This document shows, piece by piece, positions 3,976 through 22,028 of a stretch of DNA of 61,844 nt (position 1 is its first letter; the number at the start of each line of letters is the position of its first letter). The DNA comes from Alphaproteobacteria bacterium. Its GTDB lineage: Bacteria > Pseudomonadota > Alphaproteobacteria > CAISOG01. The stretch covers positions 1 through 61,844 of the forward strand of contig JBILMH010000004.1 in NCBI GenBank assembly GCA_044375625.1, read 5' to 3'. The position numbers and the translations under genes were made by a program. Under the pieces are notes generated by a model. The model made no database searches. It was not told the DNA's origin and saw nothing but the letters and a program-made list of their open reading frames with translations.

Positions 3976-5136
3976 ATGACCTATCGGATATTGCAAGTTC
4001 TGCCCCAACTGGATAGCCGTGGGGGTGGCGTTCAGCGCGGTACGCTGGATCTGGCGGGCGCCCTGGTTAAGGCAGGTTGGCAATCGATGGTAGCCTCAGC
4101 GGGGGGTGATCATGTGCCAGGCCTGGTACGGGCGGGCAGCTTGCACTTTACCCTGCCGCTGGCCAGCAAGAATCCCTGGCGGATGTGGCGCAACGCCGCC
4201 GCCCTGGCACGCCTAATCCGCCAACACGATATCGCCCTGGTGCATGCGCGCAGCCGTGCCCCCGCCTGGAGCGCCTATTGGGCTTGTCGCCGCACGGGCG
4301 TGCCACTGGTCACCACCTTTCATGGCTCCTATAGCCACCAAAATCGGCTAAAGCGTCGCTATAACGCGGTGATGACCTTTGGCCAACGGGTGATTGCGAT
4401 ATCCGGCTATATCCGCGACCATATTCAGCAGATTTACGGCACCCATCCCGCCAAAATTCGGGTGATTCAGCGTGGGGTCAATCTGGATCAATTCGATCCG
4501 GCTAAGGTGACGGCGAGACGGATGGTGCAGCTGACCAAGGATTGGCGATTGCCCGACGGGGCACCCGTCATCATGTTGCCAGGCCGATTGACGCGGTGGA
4601 AGGGGCAGCTGTTGTTGTTAGAGGCTTTGGCGCAACTGAACCGCCCCGACCTGTGTTGTGTGTTGGTGGGCGATGATGAGGGGCGATCGGCCTATCGCCA
4701 AGAAGTGATAAGTCGGATTCAGGAATTGGGTCTGTCGGAACAGGTGAAACTGGTTGGCCGCTGCCAGGATATGCCTGCCGCCTATCGCCTGGCCGATGTG
4801 GTGGTGGTGCCATCGCTGGATCCCGAAGCCTTTGGCCGCACGATGGCTGAGGGGATGGCGATGGGGTGCATGGTGGTTGCCGCAGATCACGGTGCCGCGC
4901 CAGAGGTTTTGGGGCATGGGCAATATGGATGGTTGTTTCCCCCAGGTGATGCCCCGGCGATGGCGGAGGCAATGGCCAAAGCGTTGAGTCTTAGCACCGC
5001 TGATCGTGTCAAAATGGCTGGGGCAAATCAGGCTTTTGTTGCCAAGCATTTTGGCCTGACCCAAATGGCGGCGCAAACCATGGCGGTGTATGAGGAGTTG
5101 ATCAACCCGTTGGCCAGCCTACAGAAGGCTGCATAA
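3976..5136 (+). CDS. Glycosyltransferase family 4 (GT-B fold)
   Basis: C-terminal EAFGRTMAEGMAMGCMVVAADHGAAPEV (E-x7-E type motif) and N-terminal GGGVQRGTLDLA, as in GT4 enzymes. Confidence 0.8.
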   Translation: MTYRILQVLPQLDSRGGGVQRGTLDLAGALVKAGWQSMVASAGGDHVPGLVRAGSLHFTLPLASKNPWRMWRNAAALARLIRQHDIALVHARSRAPAWSAYWACRRTGVPLVTTFHGSYSHQNRLKRRYNAVMTFGQRVIAISGYIRDHIQQIYGTHPAKIRVIQRGVNLDQFDPAKVTARRMVQLTKDWRLPDGAPVIMLPGRLTRWKGQLLLLEALAQLNRPDLCCVLVGDDEGRSAYRQEVISRIQELGLSEQVKLVGRCQDMPAAYRLADVVVVPSLDPEAFGRTMAEGMAMGCMVVAADHGAAPEVLGHGQYGWLFPPGDAPAMAEAMAKALSLSTADRVKMAGANQAFVAKHFGLTQMAAQTMAVYEELINPLASLQKAA

Positions 5137-5146
5137 CAGGGAGCTG

Positions 5147-5165
5147 GAGGCGCCTTAGCGTGATT
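5147..5165 (+). repeat. Left copy of an imperfect 19-bp direct repeat (gaggcgccttagcgtgatt) bounding the kinase-like island
   Basis: Matches 9050-9068 (gaagcgcctaagcgtgata) at 16 of 19 positions. It lies directly after the GT4 stop codon and overlaps the stop of ORF 5155..5766. Confidence 0.45.
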
Positions 5166-5766
5166 GGCGGGCAGATACCGCCCTTTTGCTGGCCAATTTT
5201 ACAATTTTGTTGGCCGCGTTATTGGCCGCATTCGCCTCTCCACCATTTTCGGATGCAACCACCGCCGACACAACTTCAGGAGCGGGCAATAAATCATTAG
5301 CAAAGTCACTGGGCAGTTCGGGTAAGGAGGGAAGATCCTGAGCCAAGACATCACTGTTATAAAATTCCTGGGCATTTGCCATATTTTGGTTGGCCGCGCC
5401 CTCATTCCCCTTGGTTCCCCGCTCACCAAACAGCCCCAAAGTCCATTCTGGCAATACGCTGAACAACAGGCGTTTAGCAACCTTGCGCAACCCCTGCATA
5501 TCTTTCAGATAACCGCGCAGTTCGGGGTGATCCGCCACCCCATGACCGCGCCGCATCACCTCACATTGCAACAACACCAGATAGGCGTTCAGCCGCATGG
5601 AATCGATTTGCGCATGATAATCGGAACGGCCATTGGAAAAGGGCAAGGCGGCCGATTGATTCGTTACATCCAGAATAAATTGCCACAAGGTCTCATTGGA
5701 ATGGGCACGCATGTCCACCTCAATCGCATGCATCCAAAGTCTAGAAGTGGTAAATGGAGTACCCAT
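5155..5766 (-). CDS. Hypothetical protein with acidic/Asn-Ala-rich C-terminal tail
   Basis: 203-aa ORF with no competing frame and no motif I recognise. It is divergent from the kinase-like gene across an AT-rich 315-bp spacer. Confidence 0.55.
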   Translation of the reverse strand: MGTPFTTSRLWMHAIEVDMRAHSNETLWQFILDVTNQSAALPFSNGRSDYHAQIDSMRLNAYLVLLQCEVMRRGHGVADHPELRGYLKDMQGLRKVAKRLLFSVLPEWTLGLFGERGTKGNEGAANQNMANAQEFYNSDVLAQDLPSLPELPSDFANDLLPAPEVVSAVVASENGGEANAANNAANKIVKLASKRAVSARQSR

Positions 5767-5945
5767 GAAGCGGACGAAGGCTCCCTATGTGGTTAAGCAA
5801 TAAACCTAAAGTATTCTATATTAGTTAGAGGGGGCATGGTTCTGTCAACAAGATTTTAACATTTCCTTAAGATTTTCTGATGGTTTGAGGGTATAAAGCC
5901 CAGTGCACCCCCATAAACCAGGGGTTTGCACAGATTCAATAGCCA

Positions 5946-5975
5946 ATGCCCCTGTAAGAAATGCCCCCATAAGAA
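5946..5975 (+). repeat. Two tandem 15-bp direct repeats (atgcccctgtaagaa / atgcccccataagaa) in the divergent intergenic region
   Basis: Read directly from the sequence; 13/15 identical. Candidate operator for the flanking divergent genes. Confidence 0.5.
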
Positions 5976-6081
5976 ATGGTGGTCTGCCTGGCCATCGAAG
6001 GCCTCTTTAAGGATCTTTTCATGTTAACGCGCTATTCTGACCAAAGTCGGGGTGTATGTAGCAGCCTGTGTTGAGGTTAGG

Positions 6082-8418
6082 ATGAACCAGCGTATCGATA
6101 ACAACCAAAGTCCAGGATCGGCGCCAGAGAGGTGGACTGCTGGTGGTATGTCCGCTGGTCAACTGCCGCCCACGGCCTTAGGTAGTCCCGCAACCATCGA
6201 CAATCAAGGCAACAGCTTATCCAACACTGGGGGTGAACAGACGGGTGGGGCAATGGCGACTGATTCGGAACGTTCCTACACCCTTTCTGCTGGCGATCAC
6301 GATGCGGATTGGTTGGCTGAGGAGGCTGCCCTATTAGCGCAAAATGATGCGCAAGCCATTGAAGCCATCGATGCTCCAGAGATCCGCAATCCGATTGATT
6401 TTGTCATGGCGTCTTCCCGGCCAGTTGTCATCAATCTCAAGAAAAATTTTCGGGTGCTGGCACACCGCCCCTTACCTTTGTTTGATTCACCCTCCGCAAA
6501 AGCTTTTGAAGCATTGCATGTGCGGGATCGGGAACGAAAATATTACGCGTTGGTCAGCGACACACAAATTCCGCCAAGGGTGAATATGGTGTTGGGATTA
6601 ATGAACAGTGGAGTTCATGGATTGGTTTGCCCGAAGGATTGGGGGGTGATTGAATGGATCGGAGGCAAGCTGTGCTATGCGATTATTATGGAACAGCCAG
6701 GCACCAAAAGACTTGTGCGGGATTTGGCCGACACCTTTGTGCCCATCAGTGATAAGATGGTCAGCCGGTCGTTGTTGGCACCAGCCTATACGATGTTGTC
6801 AGAACTGGCATCGCGTGGGTATACCCATCGCGCGCTGCGCCTGACCAACATGTTTCTGAACGATGGCGCGGAAGCCTCTGTTGTTTTTGGAGAATGTTAC
6901 AGCAAGGTGCCAGGCTTTGATCAGCCCGCCGTTTTCGAACCAATCGAAAGCGCCCTGTGTCATCCAATTGCACGGGGTGAGGGGGGGATAAGTGATGATA
7001 TTTATGCCTTAGGGGTGTGTTTAGGAATTCTACTATGCGGCTACAACCCCTTTAATGGGCTGAGCGCGCAACAAATCATCGATCGCAAAATGACCATGGG
7101 CAGCTTTAATGCCTTAATGGGGCACGCCCGCGTTTCCCCGATGATGATGGAACCTCTTAGGGGTATGCTGGCCGATTCCCATAAGAATCGTTGGGGCCTG
7201 CGAGAGCTGGATAACTGGTTGAATGGACGCCCATCCTCACCGCATACCGCTGTATCGCGTCCAAAAGCGGCGCGGGCATTTAAGTTTTTGGGTGAGCCGT
7301 ATTACAGTTTGCCACATTTGGCGATCGCCCTTGGAAGATATTGGACACAAGGAGTTGAAGAAGTTCTTAAAAAGCCCATGGGCATATGGTTAAAAAGAAG
7401 CGCTAATGACGAAGAAAAAGCAGAATCTTTTGAAAAACTTATCGCTCAAGCCCCCATGGAAGATTCTGTTTCGCACGATGTTGTATTAAGTCGTACCTGT
7501 AACATTATGTATCCAGACGGACCAATATTTTTCCGTGGCGTGAACTTTTTGCCAGACGGATTTAAAAACATTTTGTTTCTTTGCCTACAAGACAGCAACT
7601 TTTACCCAATTGTTCATGATGTTATCGAAAGGCGGTTGCTAAGTTATTGGCTTAATCGCCAATCTAGCTTGCCTCTACAATATATCAACACCATGGAAAG
7701 TGTGGCGACATGGAAGAAATTTCTGAACACCCATGGCTTGGGGTTTGGGCTTGAGCGGTGTTTGTATGAAGCCAATCCTGGCATGCTGTGTTTAAGCCCG
7801 CTTGTTTTTCAACACACCGTCACGGATCTTGTAAGCTTATTGCAAACAATGGATGAGCTTGCTGTATCACAGCCCGATTTCTCAAAAGTGATCTTGGATA
7901 CACATTTGGCGGGTTTTATTCTGGCTGGTCTTCGCAATACAGGGCTTGGCTTTGCCAAAATGATTAATTTTGAGGATGATGCCCAAAAGCGGTTGGGATG
8001 GCTGGGGCTGCTGTCGTTGATTCAGCAAAAAAGACGTATGGGCCCATTACCAAATCTGGCCGCCGCAATTTACCCATGGCTCGCTCCAATACTACAGCTT
8101 TTTCACAGTCATAGCCGGCAGAATAGAATTAAGGAAGAGTTAGAAAAAGCCGTAAAAAACGGCTCTTTGACTGGCATGATGGCAATTTTGCAGAACTATG
8201 TGGATATTTTGAATGACAAAAACGGATTTTACAGAGCTCGCTATGAGTACCATGCTCTAAAAATAAAGAATGAAGAAATTAATTTGAGCAATAAAAAAAA
8301 GTTAGAATCAAATATTCCTATTGGTCAGCAAATCGTAGCTTTTGTTGCAGGGGCTACCGCAGCAGTTTTTATGTTGGTAGTTATGTACAGGGAATATGGT
8401 TGGGAATTTTTTCTATAA
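6082..8418 (+). CDS. Protein-kinase-like protein (probably catalytically degenerate) with a long C-terminal extension and C-terminal TM anchor
   Basis: Kinase-like core: YTHRALRLTNMFL in place of HRDLKPxN, then VVFGECYS where DFG is expected, then DDIYALGVCLGILLCGYNPF (subdomain IX-like). C-terminal hydrophobic segment IVAFVAGATAAVFMLVVMY. The ATG at 6082 is preceded by GAGG; the ORF track start at 6052 is a GTG. Confidence 0.65.
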   Translation: MNQRIDNNQSPGSAPERWTAGGMSAGQLPPTALGSPATIDNQGNSLSNTGGEQTGGAMATDSERSYTLSAGDHDADWLAEEAALLAQNDAQAIEAIDAPEIRNPIDFVMASSRPVVINLKKNFRVLAHRPLPLFDSPSAKAFEALHVRDRERKYYALVSDTQIPPRVNMVLGLMNSGVHGLVCPKDWGVIEWIGGKLCYAIIMEQPGTKRLVRDLADTFVPISDKMVSRSLLAPAYTMLSELASRGYTHRALRLTNMFLNDGAEASVVFGECYSKVPGFDQPAVFEPIESALCHPIARGEGGISDDIYALGVCLGILLCGYNPFNGLSAQQIIDRKMTMGSFNALMGHARVSPMMMEPLRGMLADSHKNRWGLRELDNWLNGRPSSPHTAVSRPKAARAFKFLGEPYYSLPHLAIALGRYWTQGVEEVLKKPMGIWLKRSANDEEKAESFEKLIAQAPMEDSVSHDVVLSRTCNIMYPDGPIFFRGVNFLPDGFKNILFLCLQDSNFYPIVHDVIERRLLSYWLNRQSSLPLQYINTMESVATWKKFLNTHGLGFGLERCLYEANPGMLCLSPLVFQHTVTDLVSLLQTMDELAVSQPDFSKVILDTHLAGFILAGLRNTGLGFAKMINFEDDAQKRLGWLGLLSLIQQKRRMGPLPNLAAAIYPWLAPILQLFHSHSRQNRIKEELEKAVKNGSLTGMMAILQNYVDILNDKNGFYRARYEYHALKIKNEEINLSNKKKLESNIPIGQQIVAFVAGATAAVFMLVVMYREYGWEFFL

Positions 8419-8436
8419 ATAGATTAGGATAAAATT

Positions 8437-8949
8437 ATGTCAAAATCTGACAAAGCATCTAAAAATCAAAATTCTGTCAGGAAAAGAAATTCCTATTTAT
8501 GGCTAAGCTGGGCAATGATTTTGTCTTTAGTAATATTTTCGCCGGCTTCCTTACCGCTACTTGGTATCGGCATGTTGCCCAGCATCATCACGGCTATTTT
8601 TGATCGCAAACCACGCAAAACCGCGTTGCAAACCATTGCTTGCGCCAATTTTTGTGGCGTTATAATTTTCGCGGCAGATCTTTGGAAAAATGACAACAAT
8701 TTGGAATATTTGGAAACCATCTTGCAAAATCACCTGAATTGGCTGATTATGTACGGATCAGCGCTGATGGGGCTGATGGCCTATATTGTGATCCCCCTCA
8801 TTATTGCCCTGCTGTTGGATGCCAAAAGCAGCATCGAATCATCCGATCTTAAAAGACAGATGCAGGCGTTGCGCGATGAGTGGGGGCCCGAGGTGGCGGA
8901 GGAGAATCCAGAGGTCAAATTTATGCCCCTAATCGGCGTTGAAAAGTAA
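8437..8949 (+). CDS. Small integral membrane protein (about 4 TM segments), partner of the kinase-like gene
   Basis: Hydrophobic stretches LWLSWAMILSLVIFSPASLPLLGIGMLPSIITAIF, ALQTIACANFCGVIIFAADL and LNWLIMYGSALMGLMAYIVIPLIIALLL. It starts 18 nt after the kinase-like stop and has the same low G+C. Confidence 0.6.
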   Translation: MSKSDKASKNQNSVRKRNSYLWLSWAMILSLVIFSPASLPLLGIGMLPSIITAIFDRKPRKTALQTIACANFCGVIIFAADLWKNDNNLEYLETILQNHLNWLIMYGSALMGLMAYIVIPLIIALLLDAKSSIESSDLKRQMQALRDEWGPEVAEENPEVKFMPLIGVEK

Positions 8950-9049
8950 CAACGGCAGGACGGCTTGCGGCATTGATTTGCCTGTTCCAATTCTGTCTGC
9001 ACCACGACCAGTTTTTTTTGGATTGGCTGCCGCCAAGATAAACTTGCCT

Positions 9050-9068
9050 GAAGCGCCTAAGCGTGATA
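9050..9068 (+). repeat. Right copy of the imperfect 19-bp direct repeat bounding the kinase-like island
   Basis: gaagcgcctaagcgtgata, 16/19 identical to 5147-5165. Lies 35 nt upstream of the atpH start. Confidence 0.45.
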
Positions 9069-9103
9069 GCAAAGCGCAAAGATTTGGGAATGGTTAGGCC
9101 AAA

Positions 9104-9667
9104 ATGTTACAACGCTCTGAAAAACAGTTGGTTACACGCTATGCCGCGGCATGGGTGTCTGCCCTTGGCAACCGTCCAGCTGTTTGCCGCGACGATCTGC
9201 ATCGGTTGCAGGGGATTCAGCGTGACGTTCCCCCGTTTAAGCGCTTGATTGACGATCGCCTGATTGCCCCCGCTGATCGTATTCGTCTGTTGCAGCTGCT
9301 GTTCCCGAAATTGGGCTTGGACACTGTAACCCAGGCTTGGTTGCTGCAACTGGCCAGGCGGCGGCGGTTGTCGTTGCTGACTCCCTGTTTGGAGGAGGCG
9401 GGAGCCAGATTGTCGCTGGCCGATGGGCGGGAGCGCGCCCGCGTTATTTCCGCGCATCCTATTGAGGATGGCAATCGGACAAAAATTGCTGAGGCGTTGG
9501 CACGCTGGTTAAAATTGGCGCAGACGCCCGAGATTGCCTGGTCAGTCGATCCGCATCTGTTGACCGGATTCCGCTGTCTGATTGGTTCCTACCTACTTGA
9601 TTTCACGGGGGATACCAAGCTAAAGACCATTGCGCGAACGTTGGATGACGGGGTAAGCAGGTTATAG
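9104..9667 (+). CDS. atpH: F0F1 ATP synthase subunit delta (OSCP)
   Basis: 187 aa, immediately upstream of atpA. N-terminal LVTRYAAAWVSAL resembles the conserved RYA.AL segment. The call rests mainly on position and size. Confidence 0.75.
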   Translation: MLQRSEKQLVTRYAAAWVSALGNRPAVCRDDLHRLQGIQRDVPPFKRLIDDRLIAPADRIRLLQLLFPKLGLDTVTQAWLLQLARRRRLSLLTPCLEEAGARLSLADGRERARVISAHPIEDGNRTKIAEALARWLKLAQTPEIAWSVDPHLLTGFRCLIGSYLLDFTGDTKLKTIARTLDDGVSRL

Positions 9668-9709
9668 GTTTTGCAAACAATCGTATCTTAAGTTTTTAGG
9701 GGAAACGTT

Positions 9710-11251
9710 ATGGAAATTCGGGCATCAGAAATTACCCGCCTGTTGGAACAGGAAATTGCGCAGCTGGATCTGCCGCCACAATTGGCCGAGGTTGGTCAGG
9801 TTATCAGCGTTGGTGATGGTATCGCCCGCATCTACGGCCTAACCGGGGTGCAGGCTGGGGAAATGGTGGCCTTTGACAATGGGTTGCAGGGGATGGCGCT
9901 GAACCTGGAGCAGGACAATGTTGGGGTGGTCGTTTTTGGCGATGACAGCGGCATTAAAGAGGGCGATTTGGTGCGTCGGACTGGCAACATCGTTGATGTG
10001 CCAGTGGGCAAGGCCTTGTTGGGTCGGGTGGTTGATGGCCTGGGCAAGCCCATTGATGGCAAGGGCGCCATTAAGACCGATTTGCGCGCCCGGGTTGAGG
10101 TTAAGGCGCCTGGCATCATGCCGCGCCAATCGGTGCATGAGCCGGTTCAAACGGGGATTAAGGCGATTGACGCCCTGATTCCGATTGGTCGGGGGCAGCG
10201 GGAATTGATCATTGGTGACCGCCAGACCGGTAAGACTGCGGTGGCGATTGACACCATTTTGAACCAAAAAGCCGCCAATGATTTGTGCGATGCTGAGGGG
10301 CGGCCGCAGGACAAAATGTACTGCATTTACGTGGCCATCGGCCAAAAACGTTCCAGCGTTGCCCAGATCGTTAAGATCCTGGCGGAGCATGATGCGCTGG
10401 ACTACACCATTGTGGTGGCGGCGACCGCTTCTGACCCTGCACCGCTGCAATTTTTGGCACCCTATTCGGGTTGCAGCATGGGGGAATATTTCCGCGACAA
10501 CGGCATGCACGCCCTGATCGTCTATGATGACTTGTCGAAGCACGCGGTGGCCTATCGCCAAATGTCGCTGTTGCTGCGTCGTCCACCAGGGCGTGAGGCC
10601 TATCCGGGCGATGTGTTCTACCTGCACTCCCGCTTGCTTGAGCGTGCCGCTAAGCTGAACGCGGATCAGGGCAGCGGTTCGTTAACCGCCCTGCCGATCA
10701 TTGAAACCCAGGCGGGCGATGTGTCGGCCTATATCCCGACCAACGTCATTTCGATTACCGATGGCCAGATCTTTTTGGAGACGGAGCTGTTCTATAAGGG
10801 GATCCGCCCCGCGATTAACGTCGGTATCTCGGTCAGCCGGGTTGGATCCGCCGCGCAAATTAAGGCGATGAAGCAGGTGGCCGGCAAAATTAAGCTGGAA
10901 TTGGCGCAATACCGTGAAATGGCCGCCTTTGCCCAGTTTGCCAGCGATTTGGACGCTACCACCCAACGGCTGCTGCTGCGTGGGGAAAAGCTGACCGAAC
11001 TGCTAAAGCAACCGCAATATGCGCCGATGGTGGTGGAGATGCAGGTGGTGATGATCTACGCGGGTACCCGTGGCTATTTGGACACCATCAAAAGCAGTGA
11101 GGTGACGCGCTTTGAGACCGAGTTGGCGCATGAGTTGACCAGCAGGCATGCCGATTTGTTGGCCGCGATTCGCAACGAAAAGCAGCTTTCCAGCAGCTCT
11201 GAAGCCCAGCTGAAGACGGCCTTGGAAAAATTTGTCAGCGTGTTTGCGTAA
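9710..11251 (+). CDS. atpA: F0F1 ATP synthase subunit alpha
   Basis: Walker [16 protein letters not shown], plus [31 protein letters not shown] and other hallmark atpA segments. Confidence 0.97.
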
Positions 11252-11292
11252 TCGTGCACGCAGGTTAAGAACAAGGGGTTAGACAAAAGGCT

Positions 11293-12156
11293 ATGGCATC
11301 TCTTCAGGATCTCCGCACCCGTTTGCGCGGGGTGAAAGCGACCCAAAAGATTACGCAAGCCATGAAAATGGTGGCAGCGGCCAAGCTGAAGCGTGCGACC
11401 GATCGCGTGCATGGCAGCCAACCTTATGCCGCCGCCCTGGCCGGCTTGGTGCATCAATGCCTGGCCGAGGTTAATGCCGCCGATTGGCCAATCCTGCGCT
11501 CGGCTGGCGCGGATGAATACCCGCTGTATGTGATCGTTGGGGGTGAGCGCGGTTTGTGTGGCGCCTTTAACAACAACCTGCTGCGGGAGGTTCGGCGCAC
11601 CTTTCGCCGTCACCGCGCCCTGAACCAGCGCTGGCAAACCCTGTGCCTGGGCAAAAAACCGTTTGACGGCCTGGTGCGGGAATTTGCCAACAGCTTTTTG
11701 ATTCGTGAACCCCGTCCCAGCAGCCTTAGCCCCGTTGAGGCGGCCGAATTGGCGCAAAAGCTGGTCGATGGTTTTGTTAGCGGCCGCTACAGCTCGATCA
11801 ACCTGATATACAACCACATGGCCTCTGCCATTAAGCAGGATCCGACCCATAAGGCCTTATTGCCCCTGCATATGCCCGAACCCACCCCCACCAACGATCG
11901 CTTTGAATACAGCGATCCAAAGCCTGAATTGCTTGAAAAATTGCTGACCAGCCATTTGGCGGCGCAACTGTACAGCATCTCGTTGGAAAATGCCGCGGGG
12001 GAACAGGCGGCGCGGATGGTTGCCATGGATAACGCCACCCGTAATGCGGGCAAGATGATCAGCCGCCTTAGCCTGCAATACAACCGTCAGCGCCAGGCCA
12101 ATATTACCCGCGAAATCATCGAAATTGTGTCGGGGGCTGGTGCCCAGGCGGGCTAA
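11293..12156 (+). CDS. atpG: F0F1 ATP synthase subunit gamma
   Basis: MASLQDLRTRLRGVKATQKITQAMKMVAAAKLKRA N-terminus and C-terminal NRQRQANITREIIEIVSGA, both typical of gamma subunits. Confidence 0.95.
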   Translation: MASLQDLRTRLRGVKATQKITQAMKMVAAAKLKRATDRVHGSQPYAAALAGLVHQCLAEVNAADWPILRSAGADEYPLYVIVGGERGLCGAFNNNLLREVRRTFRRHRALNQRWQTLCLGKKPFDGLVREFANSFLIREPRPSSLSPVEAAELAQKLVDGFVSGRYSSINLIYNHMASAIKQDPTHKALLPLHMPEPTPTNDRFEYSDPKPELLEKLLTSHLAAQLYSISLENAAGEQAARMVAMDNATRNAGKMISRLSLQYNRQRQANITREIIEIVSGAGAQAG

Positions 12157-12216
12157 TCCAAGCCAGCCCATCCTGACACTCGCCGCCGCCACCCCATCCA
12201 GTTTAAGGAGCCTGCC

Positions 12217-12570
12217 ATGCCCCACGCCGTTATCGAATTTTCCGCCAACCTGACTGAGGTGATGCAGACCACCCACGCCACGGCGGCGGTGCATCAGGCC
12301 ATGATGGCCAGCGGTCTGTTTGCGGTGCCGGCCGACATCAAAACCCGCGCCTACGCCGCCCAGGACTTTTTGGTGGGAGAATTGGGGCAGCAGGGCAGCT
12401 TTGTTCACGTCACCGTCAGCCTGCTGGAGGGGCGCACCATCGCCCAGAAACAAGCCCTGACCGAACGGGTGCGCGACGCCCTGCAACAGCTGTTGCCCAC
12501 GGTGGAACAGCTTAGCGTTGATATCCGCGACATGACCAAAGATACCTATCGCAAGGCCGTGATCTCTTAA
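12217..12570 (+). CDS. 5-carboxymethyl-2-hydroxymuconate isomerase-like (tautomerase superfamily) protein
   Basis: MPHAVIEFSANL start (Pro2 after Met) and ~117-aa size are typical of CHMI family proteins. AAGGAG RBS upstream. Confidence 0.7.
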   Translation: MPHAVIEFSANLTEVMQTTHATAAVHQAMMASGLFAVPADIKTRAYAAQDFLVGELGQQGSFVHVTVSLLEGRTIAQKQALTERVRDALQQLLPTVEQLSVDIRDMTKDTYRKAVIS

Positions 12571-12621
12571 CAGCCGCTTGCCTGGGATTGCGCCCAGGCC
12601 TCAAACAGGCTATAGCCGCCC

Positions 12622-14484
12622 ATGGCCAAACGACAACTTCTTAGTCTCGAAGACATCCAGCTGAGCATTGGCAACACGCCGCTGTTTCAGGGGGTGAATT
12701 TGCATGTGCATGAGGGCGACAAAATCTGCCTGATTGGCCGTAACGGTGCGGGCAAAACCACCCTGATGCGGCTGATTATGGGGCAGATTAAGGCCGATGG
12801 CGGTGCCAGCTTTCGCTATCCCGGCTGCACCATCGGCTATTTGGCGCAACAGGTTGATTTTTCCAACAATGAAACGGTGCGCGACTTTGTCATGCACGGC
12901 CTGGCGCATAAGCCAGAGGATGACCAGCTGTCCTATCGCGCCGACATCGTGTTGGCGCCTTTAGGCCTGGATCCCGACGCGCTGATGGGGCATTTGTCGG
13001 GTGGGCAGTTGCGGCGGGCAGCCCTGGCACAGGCGTTGGTGGATGAACCCGACATCCTGCTGCTGGATGAGCCGACCAACCATTTGGATCTTGAGGCAAT
13101 TCAGTGGCTGGAACAGTTTTTGGCCGCCAGCCGCAGCGCGATCATCTGCGTCAGCCACGATCGCACCTTTCTGAGCAATTTTACCAGCACCGTTTTTTGG
13201 TTGGAACAGGGGGTGGTGCGCATTTGCCCCAGTGGCTATGCGGGGTTTGAGGAGTGGGCGGACGGCCTGTTGGAGCTGGAGGCGCGCACCCTGCACAACA
13301 TGAACAAAAAGCTGCAGGTGGAGTTGGATTGGACACAGGGCGGGGTGACGGCACGGCGCAAACGCAACCAACGCCGCCTGAATGAGCTGCATCGTCTGCG
13401 TGAAAAGATTCGGGCGGATAAAGCCGCCCTGGCCAGCAAAAAGGCGACGATTGAGCTGGATCCGCTGGCCGCCACCGCCAGCTCAAAAATCGCCGTGGAG
13501 TTTAAGAATGTCACCAAGTCCTTTGAGCGCGATGGCAAAAACATCCCGATTTTGCAGGATTTTTCCCTGCGAATTCTGCGCGGCGACCGCATCGGCATTC
13601 TGGGACCCAACGGATCGGGCAAATCCACCTTTCTAAAGCTGTTGATTGGTGAGTTGGAGCCCGACAGCGGCTTTATTTTCCGCAACAAAAAGATGGAGTT
13701 GGCCTATTTTGACCAGCACCGCACCGCCCTGGATCCCAACAAAAGCCTGTGGAACACCCTGGCACCCGATGGCGATTATGTGTTCATGGGCGGCGATCCG
13801 AAACGACCCCGCCATGTGGCGGCCTATCTGAAGAATTTTATGTTTGATCCCAAACGGGTGCGGGACGATGTTGGCACCCTGTCGGGCGGCATGCAAAACC
13901 GATTGATGCTGGCGCGCACCCTGATCAACCCAGGCAATCTGATGATCCTGGATGAGCCGACCAACGATTTGGACATGGACACCTTGGACATGTTGCAGGA
14001 TATTTTGGCCGACTACGCGGGGACGCTGATGATCGTCAGCCACGACCGCGACTTTTTGGATCGCACCGTGACGGAGGTGATGGCGTTTGAAGGCAATGCC
14101 CATATTACCAGCACCATGGGCGGCTACAGCGACTATTTGGCCAGCAAGGGGGGCGGGCGATCTTCGGCTGCGGGCAAGGCCAAGGCTGCGGGTGCGGGTG
14201 CCCCTGCTGCCAAAACCTTGTCCACCGCCACCACTGCCCCCCCTGCCCCGCGCCGCAAGCTGGATGGGAAGGAGCAGCGGGAGTTGCAACAGCTGCCCGA
14301 CCGCATCGCAAAATTAGAGGCTAAGCTGGCGGATCTGCATCAACAGCTGGCCGACCCCCAGCTGTATGTCCGCGATCCCGCCCGTTTTGACGCGGTGGCC
14401 GCCGAAATTACCGCTACCCAGGCCGCCACCGATACCGCGATGGCACGCTGGATGGAGCTGGAGGAGAAGGCGGCGGCTATATAG
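12622..14484 (+). CDS. uup: ABC-F family ATPase (Uup-like), two ABC domains plus C-terminal coiled coil
   Basis: Two Walker A sites (GRNGAGKTTL, GPNGSGKSTF), two signature motifs (LSGGQLRR, LSGGMQNR), and LLLDEPTNHLD / ILDEPTNDLD. The stop TAG (14482-14484) lies inside the terminus of the MITE-like element. Confidence 0.9.
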   Translation: MAKRQLLSLEDIQLSIGNTPLFQGVNLHVHEGDKICLIGRNGAGKTTLMRLIMGQIKADGGASFRYPGCTIGYLAQQVDFSNNETVRDFVMHGLAHKPEDDQLSYRADIVLAPLGLDPDALMGHLSGGQLRRAALAQALVDEPDILLLDEPTNHLDLEAIQWLEQFLAASRSAIICVSHDRTFLSNFTSTVFWLEQGVVRICPSGYAGFEEWADGLLELEARTLHNMNKKLQVELDWTQGGVTARRKRNQRRLNELHRLREKIRADKAALASKKATIELDPLAATASSKIAVEFKNVTKSFERDGKNIPILQDFSLRILRGDRIGILGPNGSGKSTFLKLLIGELEPDSGFIFRNKKMELAYFDQHRTALDPNKSLWNTLAPDGDYVFMGGDPKRPRHVAAYLKNFMFDPKRVRDDVGTLSGGMQNRLMLARTLINPGNLMILDEPTNDLDMDTLDMLQDILADYAGTLMIVSHDRDFLDRTVTEVMAFEGNAHITSTMGGYSDYLASKGGGRSSAAGKAKAAGAGAPAAKTLSTATTAPPAPRRKLDGKEQRELQQLPDRIAKLEAKLADLHQQLADPQLYVRDPARFDAVAAEITATQAATDTAMARWMELEEKAAAI

Positions 14485-14962: not shown

Positions 14963-15137
14963 TTCTGATGGCAGCCATCCCGCTTATAAACAGGGCGGGC
15001 AGGCCAACGGGGAGGGTGAGGGGTGGAGGAGGGGTTAATAGGGTGTATTTAGCCATACAACTTGTTGATTTGTCTATCGGTGCGTGACGCAGAAGAAAAC
15101 AGGTTGCATTTCATTTTAGAATCTAGCCCTGTGGCGT

Positions 15138-15178
15138 TACCAAAAGCGTTTTGATGCAAAGGCTTTGCCAGATCCTGT
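15138..15178 (+). repeat. 41-bp direct repeat, copy 1 (taccaaaagcgttttgatgcaaaggctttgccagatcctgt)
   Basis: 39/41 identical to 16229-16269. The two copies bracket the AT-rich zinc-ribbon/DUF4145-like gene. Confidence 0.9.
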
Positions 15179-15265
15179 GAAGATAGAAGATTACTTATTT
15201 TAGAGGTGGATATGTAGCACAGGATGATGATGTATGTCAGATATTCAACTTAAGATAATTAGCGC

Positions 15266-16168
15266 TTATTCCGCTTGTTTTTTCTTGGACTTAATCTTCA
15301 GCAAATTTGAAACAGCAGTGTTTAGTTGCGCATCATCTTTCATGGCTTGAGCCATTTTTTCCACTAATTCTGTTAGAACAACACGAATGTCTCTTGCTAA
15401 AAACAAGCATTCATCATCTGTTTTTGCATGTAATCCTTCGCTCAAGGCACTATGAAGAAGTACTAGTGGATTATGTCCGCTAATACGTAATGCTTGAGGA
15501 ATAGCGTGCTTAATTTTTTCTATTGCCTTACTAAATTGAGTTTCTTGTTTTGCAGATTTTAGATCTTCGATTAGTTTTTGATCAGCATTCAGCGTTTCTG
15601 AAACTCTAATTATTTGGTCAAAAATGTTATTTCGTCTTTCTTCGATTATTCGCCTGTAATAGCCAAAAGCACCTATACCAAGTCCTTGTGTTTCGCATCG
15701 CCTTCCTTTGAAGAAATAATCTTTTTCCGATCCAAGTAAACTAACTAATCTTGCGGGGGTTGGCGATCCAAAAGCAGGTCTTTCACCATATTTTACGATG
15801 GACGCTAACGCTGTCTGCTTATCAAGGGTGGCCTCAATAGAAAATGTTTTTCTAACACTTTCACAGTTCTTGCATATATATATTAAAAATTCATGCGAAT
15901 TACCTGATGATCCCAAGTAAATATGATCGTCTTTTGTAGCAAAGAACCGTGGGCCATTACATTGGCCGTCGCTACAATGCAAATTGATTTCAGGTAGGCT
16001 GATTCCTTGAGATGCATTTGATGCATTATAACGATAACAAGATTCAGTCTCTACATGAACGATTTTATCGGGGGGCGTTTCTTCTAGAAATGATTTCATA
16101 GTGATGGGAGTTGCCTCATGAGTAGGCTTTTCTACACTTTTTGCAGACAGCAAATTCTCGTTGTTCAT
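15266..16168 (-). CDS. Hypothetical protein: N-terminal Cys-rich (zinc-ribbon-like) region plus C-terminal DUF4145-like helical domain
   Basis: CSDGQCNGPRFF...CKNCESVRKTF gives two CxxC-type pairs. FFKGRRCETQGLGIGAFGYYRRIIEERR resembles the DUF4145 core. The ATG at 16168 is preceded by GAGGG, while the longer ORF to 16234 runs into the repeat. 20/60 G+C in 15541-15600. Confidence 0.6.
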   Translation of the reverse strand: MNNENLLSAKSVEKPTHEATPITMKSFLEETPPDKIVHVETESCYRYNASNASQGISLPEINLHCSDGQCNGPRFFATKDDHIYLGSSGNSHEFLIYICKNCESVRKTFSIEATLDKQTALASIVKYGERPAFGSPTPARLVSLLGSEKDYFFKGRRCETQGLGIGAFGYYRRIIEERRNNIFDQIIRVSETLNADQKLIEDLKSAKQETQFSKAIEKIKHAIPQALRISGHNPLVLLHSALSEGLHAKTDDECLFLARDIRVVLTELVEKMAQAMKDDAQLNTAVSNLLKIKSKKKQAE

Positions 16169-16228
16169 TTTACCCTCACAGGATTTGAACCTAAAAACAC
16201 TAGGTGAAACATACACGGCCTTTCGGGC

Positions 16229-16269
16229 TACCAAAAGCGTTTTGATGCAAAGGCTTTGCCGGAACCTGT
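16229..16269 (+). repeat. 41-bp direct repeat, copy 2
   Basis: taccaaaagcgttttgatgcaaaggctttgccggaacctgt. It abuts the stop codon of the GIY-YIG gene (16270). Confidence 0.9.
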
Positions 16270-16521
16270 TTAGGGCGCCCTAAAACGCAGTTTTTGAAAT
16301 CTTCGACCCGCTTGTGTTTTCAAATAAGCTTCAAAATCCTGCGCTGTCTTTTTATCACTAAACGCGAAATAGGCATGAAGTTTCCATGGTTGATACTTTG
16401 TGGTGTGCCCAGAATTCCCTTCGGCATTATGTTCTATCAGCCTACGTTTTAAATCCTCGGTAAAACCTGTGTAGAATTTTTCAGGGTGGCTGGCACTTTC
16501 AAGGATGTAGACGTACCACAT
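16270..16521 (-). CDS. GIY-YIG nuclease family protein (small stand-alone URI domain)
   Basis: WYVYILESASHPEKFYTGFTEDLKRRLIEHN is the GIY...YxG...R..EH pattern of GIY-YIG domains. 83 aa. Confidence 0.8.
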   Translation of the reverse strand: MWYVYILESASHPEKFYTGFTEDLKRRLIEHNAEGNSGHTTKYQPWKLHAYFAFSDKKTAQDFEAYLKTQAGRRFQKLRFRAP

Positions 16522-16587
16522 CTGTATTCCTTATCTATTCCGTCACAATCCAATCCTCGCTTTGCTCGGGTTTGTGACGAGAACCTC

Positions 16588-16622
16588 GTCAATCCCAAGA
16601 AAGCGTCGCTTTCTGGATTGAC
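16588..16622 (-). terminator. Long imperfect hairpin immediately 3' of tRNA-Pro (possible terminator/processing structure)
   Basis: On the minus strand, gtcaatccagaaagcg / cgctttcttgggattgac form a ~14-bp stem with a 2-nt bulge, 3 nt after the tRNA 3' end. There is no clear U-tract. Confidence 0.35.
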
Positions 16623-16625
16623 GGG

Positions 16626-16702
16626 TGGTCGGAGTGGCGGGATTCGAACCCACGACCCCTAGCACCCCATGCTAGTGCGCTACCAGACTGCGCTACACTC
16701 CG
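16626..16702 (-). tRNA. tRNA-Pro (anticodon GGG), CCA encoded
   Basis: The reverse complement folds by hand as CGGAGTG TA GCGC AGTCTGGTA GCGC A CTAGC ATGGGGT GCTAG GGGTC GTGGG TTCGAAT CCCGC CACTCCG A CCA. The anticodon loop AT-GGG-GT carries G37. Confidence 0.9.
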
Positions 16703-19089: not shown

Positions 19090-20334
19090 TCAGCCCCAGA
19101 GGGTTGAGATGGGAACAGCAAAAAGCCTGTCACCAAACGGTACGATGTCATGTCCACTGTAAAGCACCACACCGCCGACAAAATCATCTTTTGCTATTTC
19201 TTGCAGCACGCGCATCCCTTTGAAGTCACCACCATCCACTCGATCTGCGGTCTTGACCTCGATGCCCGCCATCGTGCCATCAGGACGCTCCAGCACAAAA
19301 TCCACCTCTTTGTTGTCACTCGTGCGGAAGTGCAGCAACTTTGCACGCACATTGCTGAATGACAGCAGCTTGGTGAGTTCGGTTGCCACAAAGTTTTCCA
19401 GCACATGGCCATAAAGTTCTGGCTTACGCTCACGCATGTCTTCAAGGCGTAAATCAAGCAGATGGCAGAGCAACAACGTATCCACCAAAAATCCTTTAGG
19501 AGATTTGACAAGGCGTTTGCCGATGTTGCGATACCACGGTTCCACATCAAACTGCAGGAACATGGCTTGCAATATGCCGCGATAGGCTTTGCTGGTGACA
19601 GGATTTAACCCTAAGTCCCGGGCAATCTCGGCATCATTCATCAGCTTGCCAGCACGCGATGCCAGCACGCGCAGCAGGTTGGGCAGCATGGCAATCTTTT
19701 CAATTTCGGAAAGCAAGCGCACATCGCGCTGTAAAATGGTGGTAAGATAACTGTCAAACCATTCGGTGCGCTCCACCACGCCTGCACCAGAAATTTCTGG
19801 AAAGGTTGCGCGTGCAATCACCGCATCCAACGACGCTTTCTTGGCAGAAGACTCAAAATCCATCGCAAACAACCGTTGCAGAAAATCGCCTTTCCCACCC
19901 AAGATTTCTGAAGCACTGAATGGGTAGAGCGTTTTGATACTCATACGCCCCACCAACGGGTCAGAGAGTTTAGGCAACGCCATGATGTTGGCAGATCCCG
20001 TAAGCAGGAATCGTCCGTTACTGTGTTTTTTGTCCTTTAACCTGATTTCATCTACCACCAGTTTCAAGGCACGAAATATCTCTGGCACGATTTGCACTTC
20101 GTCGATTATCATCGCGCCTTTACGGCTTTTAAGAAAACTCTCAGGCGAACTCGCCGCCGCCGCCATTTGCGTTGCATTATCAAAGCTGACATAGCCAGCC
20201 GGAAAGTCTTTTTTGTTTAAGTGCTGCACCAGCGTGCTTTTGCCAGCCTGGCGTGGGCCGTTTAAAAAGACCACAGGATGGTTCTTAAGCGCAAACAGCA
20301 GGTTATCTGTTAATTTACGAGGCGTGGTTTTCAT
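19090..20334 (-). CDS. AAA-type ATPase with DUF4143-like C-terminal domain
   Basis: Walker A GPRQAGKSTL and Walker B-like MIIDEVQ. The C-terminal half (VDFVLERPDGTMAGIEVK) resembles the restriction-endonuclease-like DUF4143 region common to this family. Confidence 0.8.
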   Translation of the reverse strand: MKTTPRKLTDNLLFALKNHPVVFLNGPRQAGKSTLVQHLNKKDFPAGYVSFDNATQMAAAASSPESFLKSRKGAMIIDEVQIVPEIFRALKLVVDEIRLKDKKHSNGRFLLTGSANIMALPKLSDPLVGRMSIKTLYPFSASEILGGKGDFLQRLFAMDFESSAKKASLDAVIARATFPEISGAGVVERTEWFDSYLTTILQRDVRLLSEIEKIAMLPNLLRVLASRAGKLMNDAEIARDLGLNPVTSKAYRGILQAMFLQFDVEPWYRNIGKRLVKSPKGFLVDTLLLCHLLDLRLEDMRERKPELYGHVLENFVATELTKLLSFSNVRAKLLHFRTSDNKEVDFVLERPDGTMAGIEVKTADRVDGGDFKGMRVLQEIAKDDFVGGVVLYSGHDIVPFGDRLFAVPISTLWG

Positions 20335-20479
20335 GGCAGCTCCCTATTTGCAATTATAAAGATAGCATTTATAAAAACAAAAGGCAAAGTTTGGTTTTGC
20401 AATATCAGCCTAAGCTGGAACGCGACAATATCGGGGGGCGTTGGGCTATCGGTCAAGGGCTGAATTCATTCGGACGCCT

Positions 20480-20498
20480 TAACATCAGGAGCTGGAGG
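20480..20498 (+). repeat. Exact 19-bp direct repeat, copy 1 (taacatcaggagctggagg)
   Basis: Identical to 21924-21942. Together they bracket the 2-gene AT-rich cassette. Confidence 0.9.
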
Positions 20499-20568
20499 TG
20501 TGCGTTACGCCAGCCTCTTGAAGTTTCTCTCGCAGAAGCCTTGAAGTAGCCAGAAGAAGTTTGATATT

Positions 20569-21246
20569 TCACATCACCACTTTAGCTATATCGCTCAGGC
20601 CACCTAAAATGAGTTTCTTTGGCACTCCTGGTGCGGCGTTAATCTCCAGCGTGTCAGTAAGTGTGTGATTGACATTATTTACGGCAAACGCATCAGCATC
20701 TTTAGCAAAAGCGATCCTATGTTCTTTCTCATCTGAGAAACGTTTGTTTTTGGACATTATAATTTTGTCAGGACAAACGTATCTTACCCCAGGCTCTTCA
20801 TCAAAGTCGTAGTATTCAACATTATCAGATAAAATTTTTCTATTTTTGATATTGTGCGCGGATTTTCTTAAATGTCGTGAAATACGGTTACTAAATTCTT
20901 GTACATCTGATATTTCAATGCAGCCGTCAGCACCAAACTTTTGGAACAAGGTTTTGCTGAGCTCAAGGCTTGTGCAAAAAACAAATACACGGTCTGGTCG
21001 CCTTACTCGTGATATTAGCCCGCGATGGCCTTTAAGTTTTTGGTTATTTGCTGAGATTGTAATTTCTAAACCATTCGACGGCATGTAAACATTAGCATCT
21101 TCAGTAATATCAATTCTTGCCAAATCTTCGCATGATAGAAAATAGGACAGCGTGTTGAAGAAAACTTCTCCATTATGCAAAAATTTTTCCAAATGTGACT
21201 TGTCACAAAAATACTTAAAAACAGAATATTTTCTATGATTCAGCAT
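20569..21246 (-). CDS. Hypothetical protein, DUF2971-like by motif order
   Basis: VFKYFCDKSHLEKFLHNGEVFFNTLSYF, VFVFCTSLELSKTLFQKFGADGCIEI and KNKRFSDEKEHRIAF follow the order of conserved blocks I associate with DUF2971. Its start overlaps the upstream stop (TAATG). Low G+C. Confidence 0.55.
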   Translation of the reverse strand: MLNHRKYSVFKYFCDKSHLEKFLHNGEVFFNTLSYFLSCEDLARIDITEDANVYMPSNGLEITISANNQKLKGHRGLISRVRRPDRVFVFCTSLELSKTLFQKFGADGCIEISDVQEFSNRISRHLRKSAHNIKNRKILSDNVEYYDFDEEPGVRYVCPDKIIMSKNKRFSDEKEHRIAFAKDADAFAVNNVNHTLTDTLEINAAPGVPKKLILGGLSDIAKVVM

Positions 21247-21728
21247 TATTCGCTGCGCTCCTTATCGGCAGCTTCCCAATATATATCTTCTATTGCCCTT
21301 GAGGAAATTAATCCGCAATTCATAAAATCTAGGAAATTGCCACAATCCCTCAAAGTTTGAATGCTGTACCGTGTTGATACGGCAAATGCTTTAGGATCAG
21401 ATGCGGCATGACTAGAGATGGCATTGTCATCGTCATAGAATGATTGAAACTCATTCCACTCATCGGCTGTTTTTAGCGGAAGCTTTCTCAATTTCTTTTT
21501 CTGCTCACCAACTAATTGTTTATGCATCATATATGAGCTTAATAAATGAGCAGGAATGTTTTTAATACGTTCAAGCCAAACTACTAGGGGGAGGCCTATA
21601 GCCAAGGCCAAAAATGCGACAAGAAAATTCGCGTCAGCGGTTTCTGAAATTATCCATGCTAGCAAAGCACTAGTAATTAGTGAGAATACCCACCTTAAAG
21701 TTTTGAATTTTAGCTGTACGAATTCCAT
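21246..21728 (-). CDS. Hypothetical membrane protein (2 N-terminal TM helices plus a soluble C-terminal domain)
   Basis: WVFSLITSALLAWIISE and FLVAFLALAIGLPLVVWL are hydrophobic helices. 21/60 G+C in 21301-21360. First gene of the 2-gene cassette. Confidence 0.6.
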   Translation of the reverse strand: MEFVQLKFKTLRWVFSLITSALLAWIISETADANFLVAFLALAIGLPLVVWLERIKNIPAHLLSSYMMHKQLVGEQKKKLRKLPLKTADEWNEFQSFYDDDNAISSHAASDPKAFAVSTRYSIQTLRDCGNFLDFMNCGLISSRAIEDIYWEAADKERSE

Positions 21729-21923
21729 AATGTTTACCCAATATGTTTTCCTAAAATTTTCTCTGGAGATAGCTGTGCACTTGTTTTCTCACGAGTGCAC
21801 GGCCTCGGTAGAGAGAACGCCATGCAAAAGAATTAAGATACGCACAAAAAGACCAGAATTTCTATGCAGGCTACTCATATTTCAGCAGGATTACAAGAAA
21901 TGATTAACCTGCTGATTACTTTC

Positions 21924-21942
21924 TAACATCAGGAGCTGGAGG
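21924..21942 (+). repeat. Exact 19-bp direct repeat, copy 2, overlapping the last ~6 nt of tRNA-Ser
   Basis: taacatcaggagctggagg. Positions 21937-21942 belong to the tRNA-Ser 3' end. Confidence 0.9.
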
Positions 21943-22028
21943 AGACGGAGGGATTCGAACCCTCGATACGGTATAACCCGTATAACGGTTTAGCAAACCG
22001 TCGCCTTCAGCCGCTCGGCCACGTCTCC
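21937..22028 (-). tRNA. tRNA-Ser (anticodon GCU), long variable arm
   Basis: The reverse complement is GGAGACG TG GCCGAGCGGCTGAAGGCG ACGGT TTGCTAA ACCGT TATACGGGTTATACCGTATC GAGGG TTCGAAT CCCTC CGTCTCC T CCA. Confidence 0.9.

Follow-up and report, generated by a model that had tools for sequence, protein, structure and literature searches.

A predicted pseudokinase and its small membrane partner: a conserved gene pair of Rhodospirillales-type alphaproteobacteria found in a low-GC segment beside the atp genes of a freshwater lineage

We have analysed a contig of 61,844 nucleotides from an alphaproteobacterial genome assembly (JBILMH010000004.1 of GCA_044375625.1, positions 1 to 61,844 of the forward strand), which is referred to below, at its full length, as the window. 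The analysis concerns the segment 5147–9068, located between a glycosyltransferase gene and the atp operon. A first-pass annotation had interpreted this segment as a horizontally acquired three-gene island whose products form a signalling or conflict system. We find instead that two of the genes, a kinase-like gene (6082–8418, hereafter K) and a gene for a small membrane protein (8437–8949, hereafter P), belong to a conserved pair that is widespread in Rhodospirillales-type alphaproteobacteria, and that the odd composition and position of the pair are peculiar to the clade from which the window comes. The gene order in the open reading frame (ORF) map is GT4, 203-aa ORF, spacer, K, P, atpH, atpA and atpG, and the locus contains the following features (TM, transmembrane):

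3976–5136, plus strand: GT4 glycosyltransferase gene, taken from the ORF map, with the GT4 assignment confirmed by Pfam and NCBIfam
5147–5165, plus strand: left copy of an edge repeat, overlapping the final codons of the 203-aa gene, stop codon included
5155–5766, minus strand: 203-aa orphan gene, restricted to the window's clade and divergent from K
5767–6081: divergent spacer, 315 bp, GC 0.45
6082–8418, plus strand: K, encoding a predicted 778-aa tail-anchored Hanks-type pseudokinase
8437–8949, plus strand: P, encoding a 170-aa membrane protein with three to four TM segments
9050–9068, plus strand: right copy of the edge repeat, within a conserved block upstream of atpH (about 9030–9103)
9104–9667: atpH, ATP synthase delta subunit, confirmed by Pfam and NCBIfam

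The stop codon of K (8416–8418) is separated from the ATG of P (8437) by a gap of 18 nt, with an AGGA Shine-Dalgarno sequence. The GC content of 5147–9068 is 0.474 versus 0.583 in the flanks; a trough of 0.36–0.44 extends over 7250–8750, with about 0.58 outside, and the interval 8221–8280 contains 20 G+C in 60 nucleotides. In the neighbouring genes the GC content at third codon positions (GC3) is 0.62–0.78; the C-terminal half of K has 0.41, P has 0.53 and the 203-aa gene has 0.55. The first and second codon positions (GC1 and GC2) are depressed as well, GC2 being 0.35–0.36 in the C-terminal half of K and in P. The divergent gene pair (5155–5766, minus; 6082–8418, plus) with its AT-rich spacer and the further drop in composition towards 8221–8280 were thus reproduced, as were all other sequence features listed in the first-pass annotation, with coordinates that are exact or at most 1 nt off.

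A word-indexed search retrieved 33 full-length homologues of K, and an exhaustive profile search (E ≤ 1e-30) yielded 1314 clusters at 50% identity; the 150 highest-ranking of these are all full-length and mostly 650–740 aa long. The K protein of the window is collinear end to end with 21 relatives, has all 22 invariant columns and matches the family profile with an E-value of 2.6e-261. A scan of species-representative genomes confirmed 189 K loci, of which the best 80 were retained; among these, the named isolates all belong to Rhodospirillales in the broad sense. The genera that carry K include Azospirillum, Magnetospirillum, Niveispirillum, Nitrospirillum, Rhodospirillum, Terasakiella, Oleisolibacter, Virgifigura and Curvivirga, while K-bearing metagenome-assembled genomes (MAGs) are labelled Stellaceae, Azospirillaceae, Thalassobaculaceae, Kiloniellales and Acetobacteraceae. 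A few carriers have off-lineage labels, and these are MAGs.

Clustering of neighbouring ORFs, combined with Pfam tags, revealed a usual context of hisZ-purA-K-P-rpoH-rluD. A hisZ-like gene and purA were found upstream of the pair at 45 and 53 loci, respectively, and downstream, on the opposite strand, rpoH was found at 44 loci and a gene for an RluD-type pseudouridine synthase at 43. When searched with a hidden Markov model of the P family, P is encoded on the same strand directly after K in 88 of 90 loci, and the other two loci end at a contig edge. At 79 loci outside the window's clade, the GC content of the pair differs from that of its flanks by a median of 0.000 (range −0.053 to +0.057). 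No copy of K was detected in phage records. Full-length plasmid copies (93% of the query) are present only on non-mobilisable Azospirillum replicons or chromids of 0.9–1.5 Mb; two Rhizobium plasmids gave partial matches only, with 40% coverage and 22–23% identity (two records predicted to be mobilizable). Within 5147–9068, the ORF map and Pfam revealed no integrase or recombinase ORF, and there is no tRNA gene near the pair, the nearest being at 16626. A literature search found no paper on the K-P family. Since the housekeeping context is conserved, phage copies are absent and the GC content elsewhere equals that of the flanks, we conclude that the pair is core rather than accessory or mobile and, judging by gene order, constitutes an ancient predicted two-gene operon of Rhodospirillales-type alphaproteobacteria. 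Conservation of the pair in its hisZ-purA-K-P-rpoH-rluD context across such genomes contradicts the view of it as an accessory module.

The K protein was modelled with AlphaFold2 (AF2; predicted local distance difference test score, pLDDT, 81; predicted template modelling score, pTM, 0.74) and consists of four parts:

6082–6417, plus strand: K aa 1–112, predicted disordered N-terminal extension, clade-specific and prone to insertions and deletions
6418–7251, plus strand: K aa 113–390, predicted pseudokinase domain
7252–8196, plus strand: K aa 391–705, all-alpha domain with two small beta hairpins and no known relative
8197–8415, plus strand: K aa 706–778, single long helix with a terminal TM segment

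In the AF2 model, pLDDT is below 50 at aa 1–74 and 88–112 of the N-terminal extension, which, as the alignment shows, is missing in distant homologues. RNA contigs of related strains (see below) carry an in-frame 6-nt insertion (TGCTGG) after position 6137, an observation that fits the extension being an indel-tolerant, clade-specific addition.

The kinase relationship of the second domain is weak when judged from the single sequence (Pfam family Pkinase, PF00069, 15.2 bits against a cut-off of 31.7, C-lobe only). A profile built from 22 members of the K family matches solved kinase structures (MAPKAPK3, RSK and StkP) with an E-value of 1e-13, and a Foldseek search with the K model retrieved PknB, PknA and WNK3 with E-values of about 1e-8 and template modelling (TM) scores of about 0.7 on the target. 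Two other relationships were considered and rejected: kinship with UbiB/ABC1 proteins (no match to PF03109) and with the lanthionine synthetase LanL (18.8 bits versus a cut-off of 650).

The catalytic positions were tallied by alignment column over 90 members of the K family. In the HMMER alignment the segment HRairptN of K stands opposite HRDvKPeN of kinases. The position of the HRD aspartate, following H-R/G, is occupied by A in 61 members, N in 10, S in 10, G in 7 and C in 2, and by D in none; the catalytic-loop lysine is replaced by arginine in 81 of 90. In place of the Gly-rich loop the family has PLPxxDxPxAxAF, and the position of the VAIK lysine is I/V or C throughout. The DFG motif reads [L/F]-G-[D/E], where the glycine (G270), aligned with the DFG glycine, is invariant, the canonical aspartate position is V, M, A or T, and the residue after G270 is D or E in 86 of 90 members. 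In the window K itself, HRA is found in place of HRD and FGE in place of DFG. The catalytic-loop asparagine (HRDxxxxN), N256, is retained in all 90 members, and together with H249, R253, G270, D/E271 and Q281 it forms a conserved remnant of the cleft; E286 is conserved too. Because none of the 90 members has the canonical catalytic residues, K is a pseudokinase by the usual criteria, and we classify it, from these alignments, as a predicted Hanks-type pseudokinase that keeps a strongly conserved cleft remnant.

The C-terminal all-alpha domain, when modelled alone, reached a pLDDT of 87.5. Foldseek searches with it gave no match in the PDB (best E-value 0.63, TM score below 0.2) or among the viral structures of BFVD (best E-value 1.1), and no Pfam match was found for the domain in 16 family members. 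The statement of the first-pass annotation that some 400 residues after the kinase core could not be placed is borne out by these searches. Residues 706–777 are helical according to DSSP applied to the AF2 model, and the only hydrophobic segment of K, aa 751–769 (nt 8332–8388; hydropathy peak 2.38), lies within this helix. A hydrophobic C-terminus is present in all 89 complete K proteins. The protein had earlier been described as a membrane-anchored kinase-like protein; it does appear to be anchored, by one C-terminal helix (aa 751–769) rather than at the N-terminus, and the catalytic residues are missing.

The hydropathy profile of P contains three strong peaks, the first of which is long enough for a hairpin. 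Four TM segments are thus plausible, whereas the position of P 18 nt downstream of K, the other half of the earlier description, was confirmed. Alignments revealed the conserved motifs (G/A)MLP(T/S), DR, NF.G, LW, YGAA.GW and a C-terminal EWG. Searches of Pfam, NCBIfam, PDB profiles and PHROGs identified no family or structural relative of P. Named P entries among the matches listed are called "hypothetical protein", except for two generic automatic names of the Joint Genome Institute (JGI); the RefSeq labels are "serine/threonine protein kinase" for K and "hypothetical protein" for P. The ratio of nonsynonymous to synonymous substitution rates (dN/dS) of P is about 0.10–0.12. The gaps between K and P are mostly 0–21 nt in annotated cases, and the genes often abut or overlap. 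At two loci (L011 10049–10811 and L035 9980–11266, from Terasakiella sp. PR1 and an alphaproteobacterial MAG), K and P are 0.8–1.3 kb apart. In a single instance, the MAG locus L009 5026–7860, the pair directly follows motA-motB and a motB-like gene, and P has a C-terminal extension of 100 aa. The first-pass annotation had proposed that all three products of the segment work together at the membrane. This can be upheld for K and P as a dedicated pair (88 of 90 loci, with hydrophobic tails in 89 of 89 K proteins) and does not extend to the 203-aa protein.

Among known systems, the closest in fold is PknB of M. tuberculosis (PDB 1MRU and 3ORI), with which K shares the bilobal kinase fold (TM score about 0.7 on the target, E-value about 1e-8, 20% identity). 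The C-lobe motif DDIYALG of K corresponds to DIWSLG of Hanks-type kinases, and the arginine of subdomain XI is present. Unlike PknB-type kinases, K has no Gly-rich loop, VAIK lysine, HRD aspartate or DFG aspartate; it has a 315-aa cytoplasmic alpha domain and an obligate partner gene for a protein with three to four TM segments. Its membrane helix, again unlike that of PknB-type kinases, is located at the extreme C-terminus, and there is therefore no extracellular sensor domain. An atlas of bacterial serine/threonine kinases (STKs) describes seven pseudokinase families, CP1, DYD, ActPs1-3, DLHK and GLW, of which ActPs1, ActPs2 and GLW lack all three residues of the catalytic triad, and it reports that some families may retain nucleotide binding (bioRxiv 10.1101/2025.01.12.632604). 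By description, which is the level at which the comparison was made, K likewise combines a Hanks fold devoid of triad residues with membrane association. In MviN/MurJ of M. tuberculosis a pseudokinase is fused to a 14-TM flippase, whereas K is tail-anchored and the membrane part is a separate small protein. A non-catalytic scaffolding role would be expected for K, as for the atlas families and MviN, which are from Actinobacteria and not, like K, from Rhodospirillales.

UbiB proteins, too, are widely conserved, have a kinase-like fold and membrane helices at the C-terminus, and are of unclear catalytic status. K lacks the PF03109 match of the UbiB/ABC1 (ADCK) group, is closer to canonical eukaryotic-type protein kinases and differs in its C-terminal domain and partner. 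Kinases of defence systems share only the C-lobe with K: the PADLOC model of mad6, from a methylation-associated defence system, matches aa 312–386 with an E-value of 1e-5, PD-T4-6 matches the C-lobe with E-values of 5e-4 to 5e-2, and NCBIfam MADS6 gives 0.032. These matches are far under the family cut-offs (12.7 bits versus 460); moreover, the K locus has no accompanying defence genes, the catalytic residues are absent and the chromosomal context is core. P and the 203-aa protein have no PADLOC matches. With partial kinase-lobe matches only in PADLOC, no PHROGs matches for the three proteins and no phage copies, a defence-system reading was rejected.

The 203-aa protein has 23 homologues, 22 of which belong to the same clade and are at least 66% identical (86–100% in most clade members and 66% in the most distant, P0202). 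The lone homologue from outside, 44–50% identical, is encoded on a 1.5-kb contig with no recognisable K. Given this high identity in clade members and a dN/dS of 0.13 relative to the clade contig L003, the ORF is, by its pattern of substitution, a real gene. The genes that occupy its place next to distant K-P pairs bear no relation to it, and since it is found only in the window's clade, we place it outside the conserved unit; the proposal that the three genes travel as a single module fails on this point. Matches to the 203-aa protein were absent from Pfam, NCBIfam, PADLOC, PDB and PHROGs, in agreement with the earlier remark that it has no placeable motif. Its tail, described before as acidic, is mildly so (10 D+E versus 8 K+R), while the terminus itself is basic.

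Clade members were compared using five independent contigs: the window, L001/L002, L010, L090 and L003. The spacer upstream of K contains the two tandem 15-mers noted earlier, AATGCCCCTGTAAGA and AATGCCCCCATAAGA, identical at 13 of 15 positions and located at 5945–5974, 1 nt from the position first given (5946–5975). Of the other clade contigs, only those of the near strains L001 and L010 retain them, and neither L090 nor L003 has them; a role as a conserved operator was rejected because retention is limited to near-identical strains. Two other parts of the spacer are conserved in all five clade members: a block at about 5838–5870 (GGTTCTGTCAACAAGATTTTAACATTT), in which TCTGTCAACAAGATTTTAA is found, is invariant, and so is, within a conserved block at about 6005–6081, the leader 6047–6081 (TCGGGGTGTATGTAGCAGCCTGTGTTGAGGTTAGG) with GAGG in front of ATG 6082. 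Both invariant blocks persist although the K coding sequence is merely 61–78% identical. The region 6005–6081 is probably the promoter and leader of K, and the blocks 5838–5870 and 6047–6081 are possible regulatory elements. No Rfam match was found for RNA elements in the spacer or leader at E ≤ 1.

The imperfect 19-bp direct repeat reported at the two edges of the segment (GAAGCGCCTAAGCGTGAT) is present: 5147–5165 and 9050–9068 are identical at 16 of 19 positions (16 of 18 over 5147–5164), and in a post hoc test 2000 shuffles of the right-hand intergenic region gave no match as good. In L001 the repeat is reduced to 15 of 18, and in L003 the left copy is gone, the best match, elsewhere, being 12 of 18. 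The block around the right copy (about 9030–9103) is conserved in both L001 and L003. As judged from this comparison of carriers, in which L003 is missing the left copy, the repeat pair is not a conserved island boundary, an outcome that the first-pass annotation had itself listed as refuting its interpretation.

The window sequence is present in many lake-water metagenomes, and contigs from four lake metatranscriptomes, 90–99% identical to it, cover K (6058–8175) and P (8614–8939). The 203-aa gene, the 3′ end of the GT4 gene and atpH have no coverage by these contigs. K and P are transcribed in nature. The first RNA contig starts at 6058–6063 in three runs, which supports ATG 6082 as the start codon and puts the 5′ end of the transcript just downstream of the promoter-like block. 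GTG 6052 was considered as an alternative start of K and rejected: ATG 6082 and its GAGG are invariant in the five clade members, and both this and the beginning of RNA contigs at 6058–6063 favour 6082.

The lineage of the window includes L010, a MAG named "uncultured Holosporaceae bacterium" (94% identity), and P0208 has the same label. Published phylogenies (PMC6447387, PMC11909080) place Holosporales within or next to Rhodospirillales, so that K-P could plausibly have reached the clade by descent. The GT4 gene, 203-aa gene, K, P and atpH are collinear in all five clade contigs, whose K proteins are between 66% and 97% identical to that of the window. A comparison of the GT4-atpH junction in related genomes, suggested by the first-pass annotation, showed the trio in all five clade contigs, with no presence/absence polymorphism among them. 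Placement of K-P between GT4 and atpH is found only in this clade, elsewhere the usual place being between purA and rpoH. A metagenome scan with the GT4 gene added one further clade member carrying the trio (L090), and other GT4 orthologues, 44–60% identical, have no adjacent atpH.

Within the clade, the GC content of K-P is 0.105 to 0.150 below that of the flanks. Nucleotide identity between the window and L003 is 0.61–0.78 over 5750–9250 and 0.82–0.97 outside. The K proteins of the two are 0.69 identical, with a synonymous divergence (dS) of 1.96 and a dN/dS of 0.11–0.125; dS is 1.13 for P and 0.28–0.65 for the flanking genes. Synonymous divergence of the pair is thus 3–7 times that of its flanking genes at a dN/dS of about 0.11, a pattern by which K-P is evidently under purifying selection though it is the fastest-diverging segment. 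In comparison with L001, 97% identical to the window, identity falls to 85–88% over the 3′ half of P and beyond its end. The fast divergence may stem from amelioration, from weak constraint on codons or from the import of divergent alleles. In a neighbour-joining tree the clade is on a long stem, with no close or informative sister.

Elsewhere in the window, a sharp low-GC patch (15000–16700, GC 0.35–0.42) contains a 322-aa ORF (15266–16234, minus strand, GC3 0.28) that matches PHROG 25239, of unknown function, with an E-value of 4.7e-67 and adjoins a tRNA-Pro gene (16626–16702, minus strand). In L001, the region downstream of a DivIC-like gene has other genes there (GIY-YIG, SpoU methylase, Fic/MerR). 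The patch looks like a strain-variable phage-related islet at a tRNA gene. Further 1-kb bins with GC 0.31–0.43 occur at about 20000–22000, 24000, 51000, 55000 and 58000, against a window mean of 0.55, and one of them is beside a tRNA-Ser gene (21937–22028); overall, the genome resembles a mosaic of such low-GC islets. In the atp cluster (9104–14484), atpH-atpA-atpG are followed by a CHMI-family gene (12217–12570) and an ABC-F gene (12622–14484). No atpD or atpC follows atpG in the window, and the order is the same in L001 and L003. L001 has an extra 212-aa ORF between atpA and atpG (L001 15208–15846, no Pfam match) that is absent from the window (about 11251–11293); there is a local dip in identity at window positions 11251–11500.

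One can ask which explanation accounts best for these data. We favour, with fair though not high confidence, the interpretation that K and P are a conserved pair whose products form a non-catalytic membrane complex, present in this clade as a relocated copy of odd composition, and not part of a three-gene mobile island. A horizontally acquired three-gene signalling or defence module, inserted between GT4 and atpH and bounded by the 19-bp repeat, would explain the GC content below that of the flanks, the edge repeat that 0 of 2000 shuffles equalled, the weak PADLOC matches to the kinases mad6 and PD-T4-6, and the rapid divergence inside the clade, and a genuine phage-related islet is found elsewhere in the same window. 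However, K-P is order-wide, present once per locus, syntenic with purA and rpoH and of host GC content in other genomes; the 203-aa gene never accompanies it outside the clade, the trio is in all five clade contigs, and there is no integrase, tRNA or phage copy. The left repeat is absent in L003, the right copy is part of the conserved block upstream of atpH, and the PADLOC matches span only 35–130 residues, mostly of the kinase C-lobe; positive evidence for a conflict system is lacking. This explanation is largely refuted and, in our estimation, very improbable. Of the claim of horizontal acquisition, the foreign-looking composition stands for this clade only (−0.105 to −0.150, compared to the median of 0.000 at 79 loci), while no integrase, tRNA or phage copy accompanies it; an old horizontal origin of the clade's K-P copy is possible.

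How the clade came by this copy can be explained in more than one way, and acquisition and vertical descent are both possible, because the clade has no close sister and there is no relative at a useful distance with GT4 beside atpH. We give about an even chance to acquisition or replacement from a lower-GC relative before the clade diversified, the copy still drifting to host composition. That K-P was inherited vertically and only translocated, low GC and high dS resulting from weak codon selection or weak GC-biased conversion, is a substantial possibility, if somewhat below an even one: Holosporales are reported, in the two sources named above (PMC6447387, PMC11909080), to be nested in Rhodospirillales, no donor was found for a clade on a long unaffiliated branch, dN/dS is low, and the nucleotide identity of K resembles that of the non-coding spacer. 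Against descent stand the lowering of GC1 and GC2 (0.35–0.36 for GC2) besides GC3, which points to long evolution under AT pressure, the absence of such a GC offset in 79 other lineages and the sharp composition boundaries at gene edges. A more elaborate proposal, which we hold to be quite unlikely, takes K-P as an order-wide inner-membrane complex of a dead kinase, a new all-alpha fold and a 4-TM subunit, replaced in this clade by the copy of a low-GC lineage and changing several-fold faster at synonymous sites than its neighbours as the target of antagonists (a surface for phage or predators, or a manipulated checkpoint).

As to function, K could be an atypical enzyme whose catalytic residues have been relocated, for example a non-canonical kinase, a kinase of lipids or small molecules, or an AMPylase or nucleotidyltransferase. 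Its target at the membrane would be P or a substrate in the envelope. Kinase folds whose active sites have moved or been put to other use are known from WNK, SelO and SidJ. In the K family N256 does not vary, the residue after G270 is acidic in 86 of 90 members, H249, R253, Q281 and E286 are conserved, and the STK atlas preprint allows for nucleotide binding in some pseudokinase families. Since the Gly-rich loop, beta3 lysine and HRD aspartate are found in 0 of 90 members and no candidate substitute lysine was identified, we consider such an enzyme unlikely, although not negligibly so. A non-catalytic membrane scaffold or switch complex is the most likely role of the pair. In such a complex, the cytoplasmic pseudokinase and alpha domains of K would serve as a binding or switch module that does not carry out phosphotransfer, the cleft remnant (H249, R253, N256, G270, D/E271 and Q281) may provide a pocket for a ligand or partner, and the pair would provide a scaffold or regulate a membrane process allosterically.

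Several points weigh against the interpretation that we favour. The tail helix of K would pack against the TM bundle of P to give an inner-membrane complex, as suggested by co-occurrence and topology only. In a pure scaffold one would not usually see N256, D/E271, H249 and R253 so tightly conserved, and this could mean non-canonical catalysis. No RNA contig bridges 8175–8614, which makes co-transcription of K and P putative, the ends of RNA contigs are approximate, and DNA carry-over is possible in metatranscriptomes. With regard to relocation, the metagenome scan with GT4 found no empty GT4-atpH site, the neighbour-joining tree indicated no donor lineage for the clade's copy, and low GC3 and high dS could instead reflect weak constraint on codon usage.

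Few bacterial pseudokinases are understood, and the K family is large, with at least 1314 clusters at 50% identity. The pair is present in model organisms of a major alphaproteobacterial radiation (Azospirillum, Magnetospirillum and Rhodospirillum), and its unexplored parts include an obligate membrane partner and a confidently predicted domain that has no structural relative. Since the RefSeq label of K, "serine/threonine protein kinase", implies an active enzyme, defining the pair corrects a misleading annotation. For genome scans, the locus is a caution that a sharp GC trough together with a short bounding repeat can hold an ancient core operon. K-P is a cleanly testable two-gene system in genetically tractable organisms, and the value of the finding lies in defining a large, unstudied family of pseudokinase-partner pairs that includes a domain of unknown fold, rather than a new mobile system.

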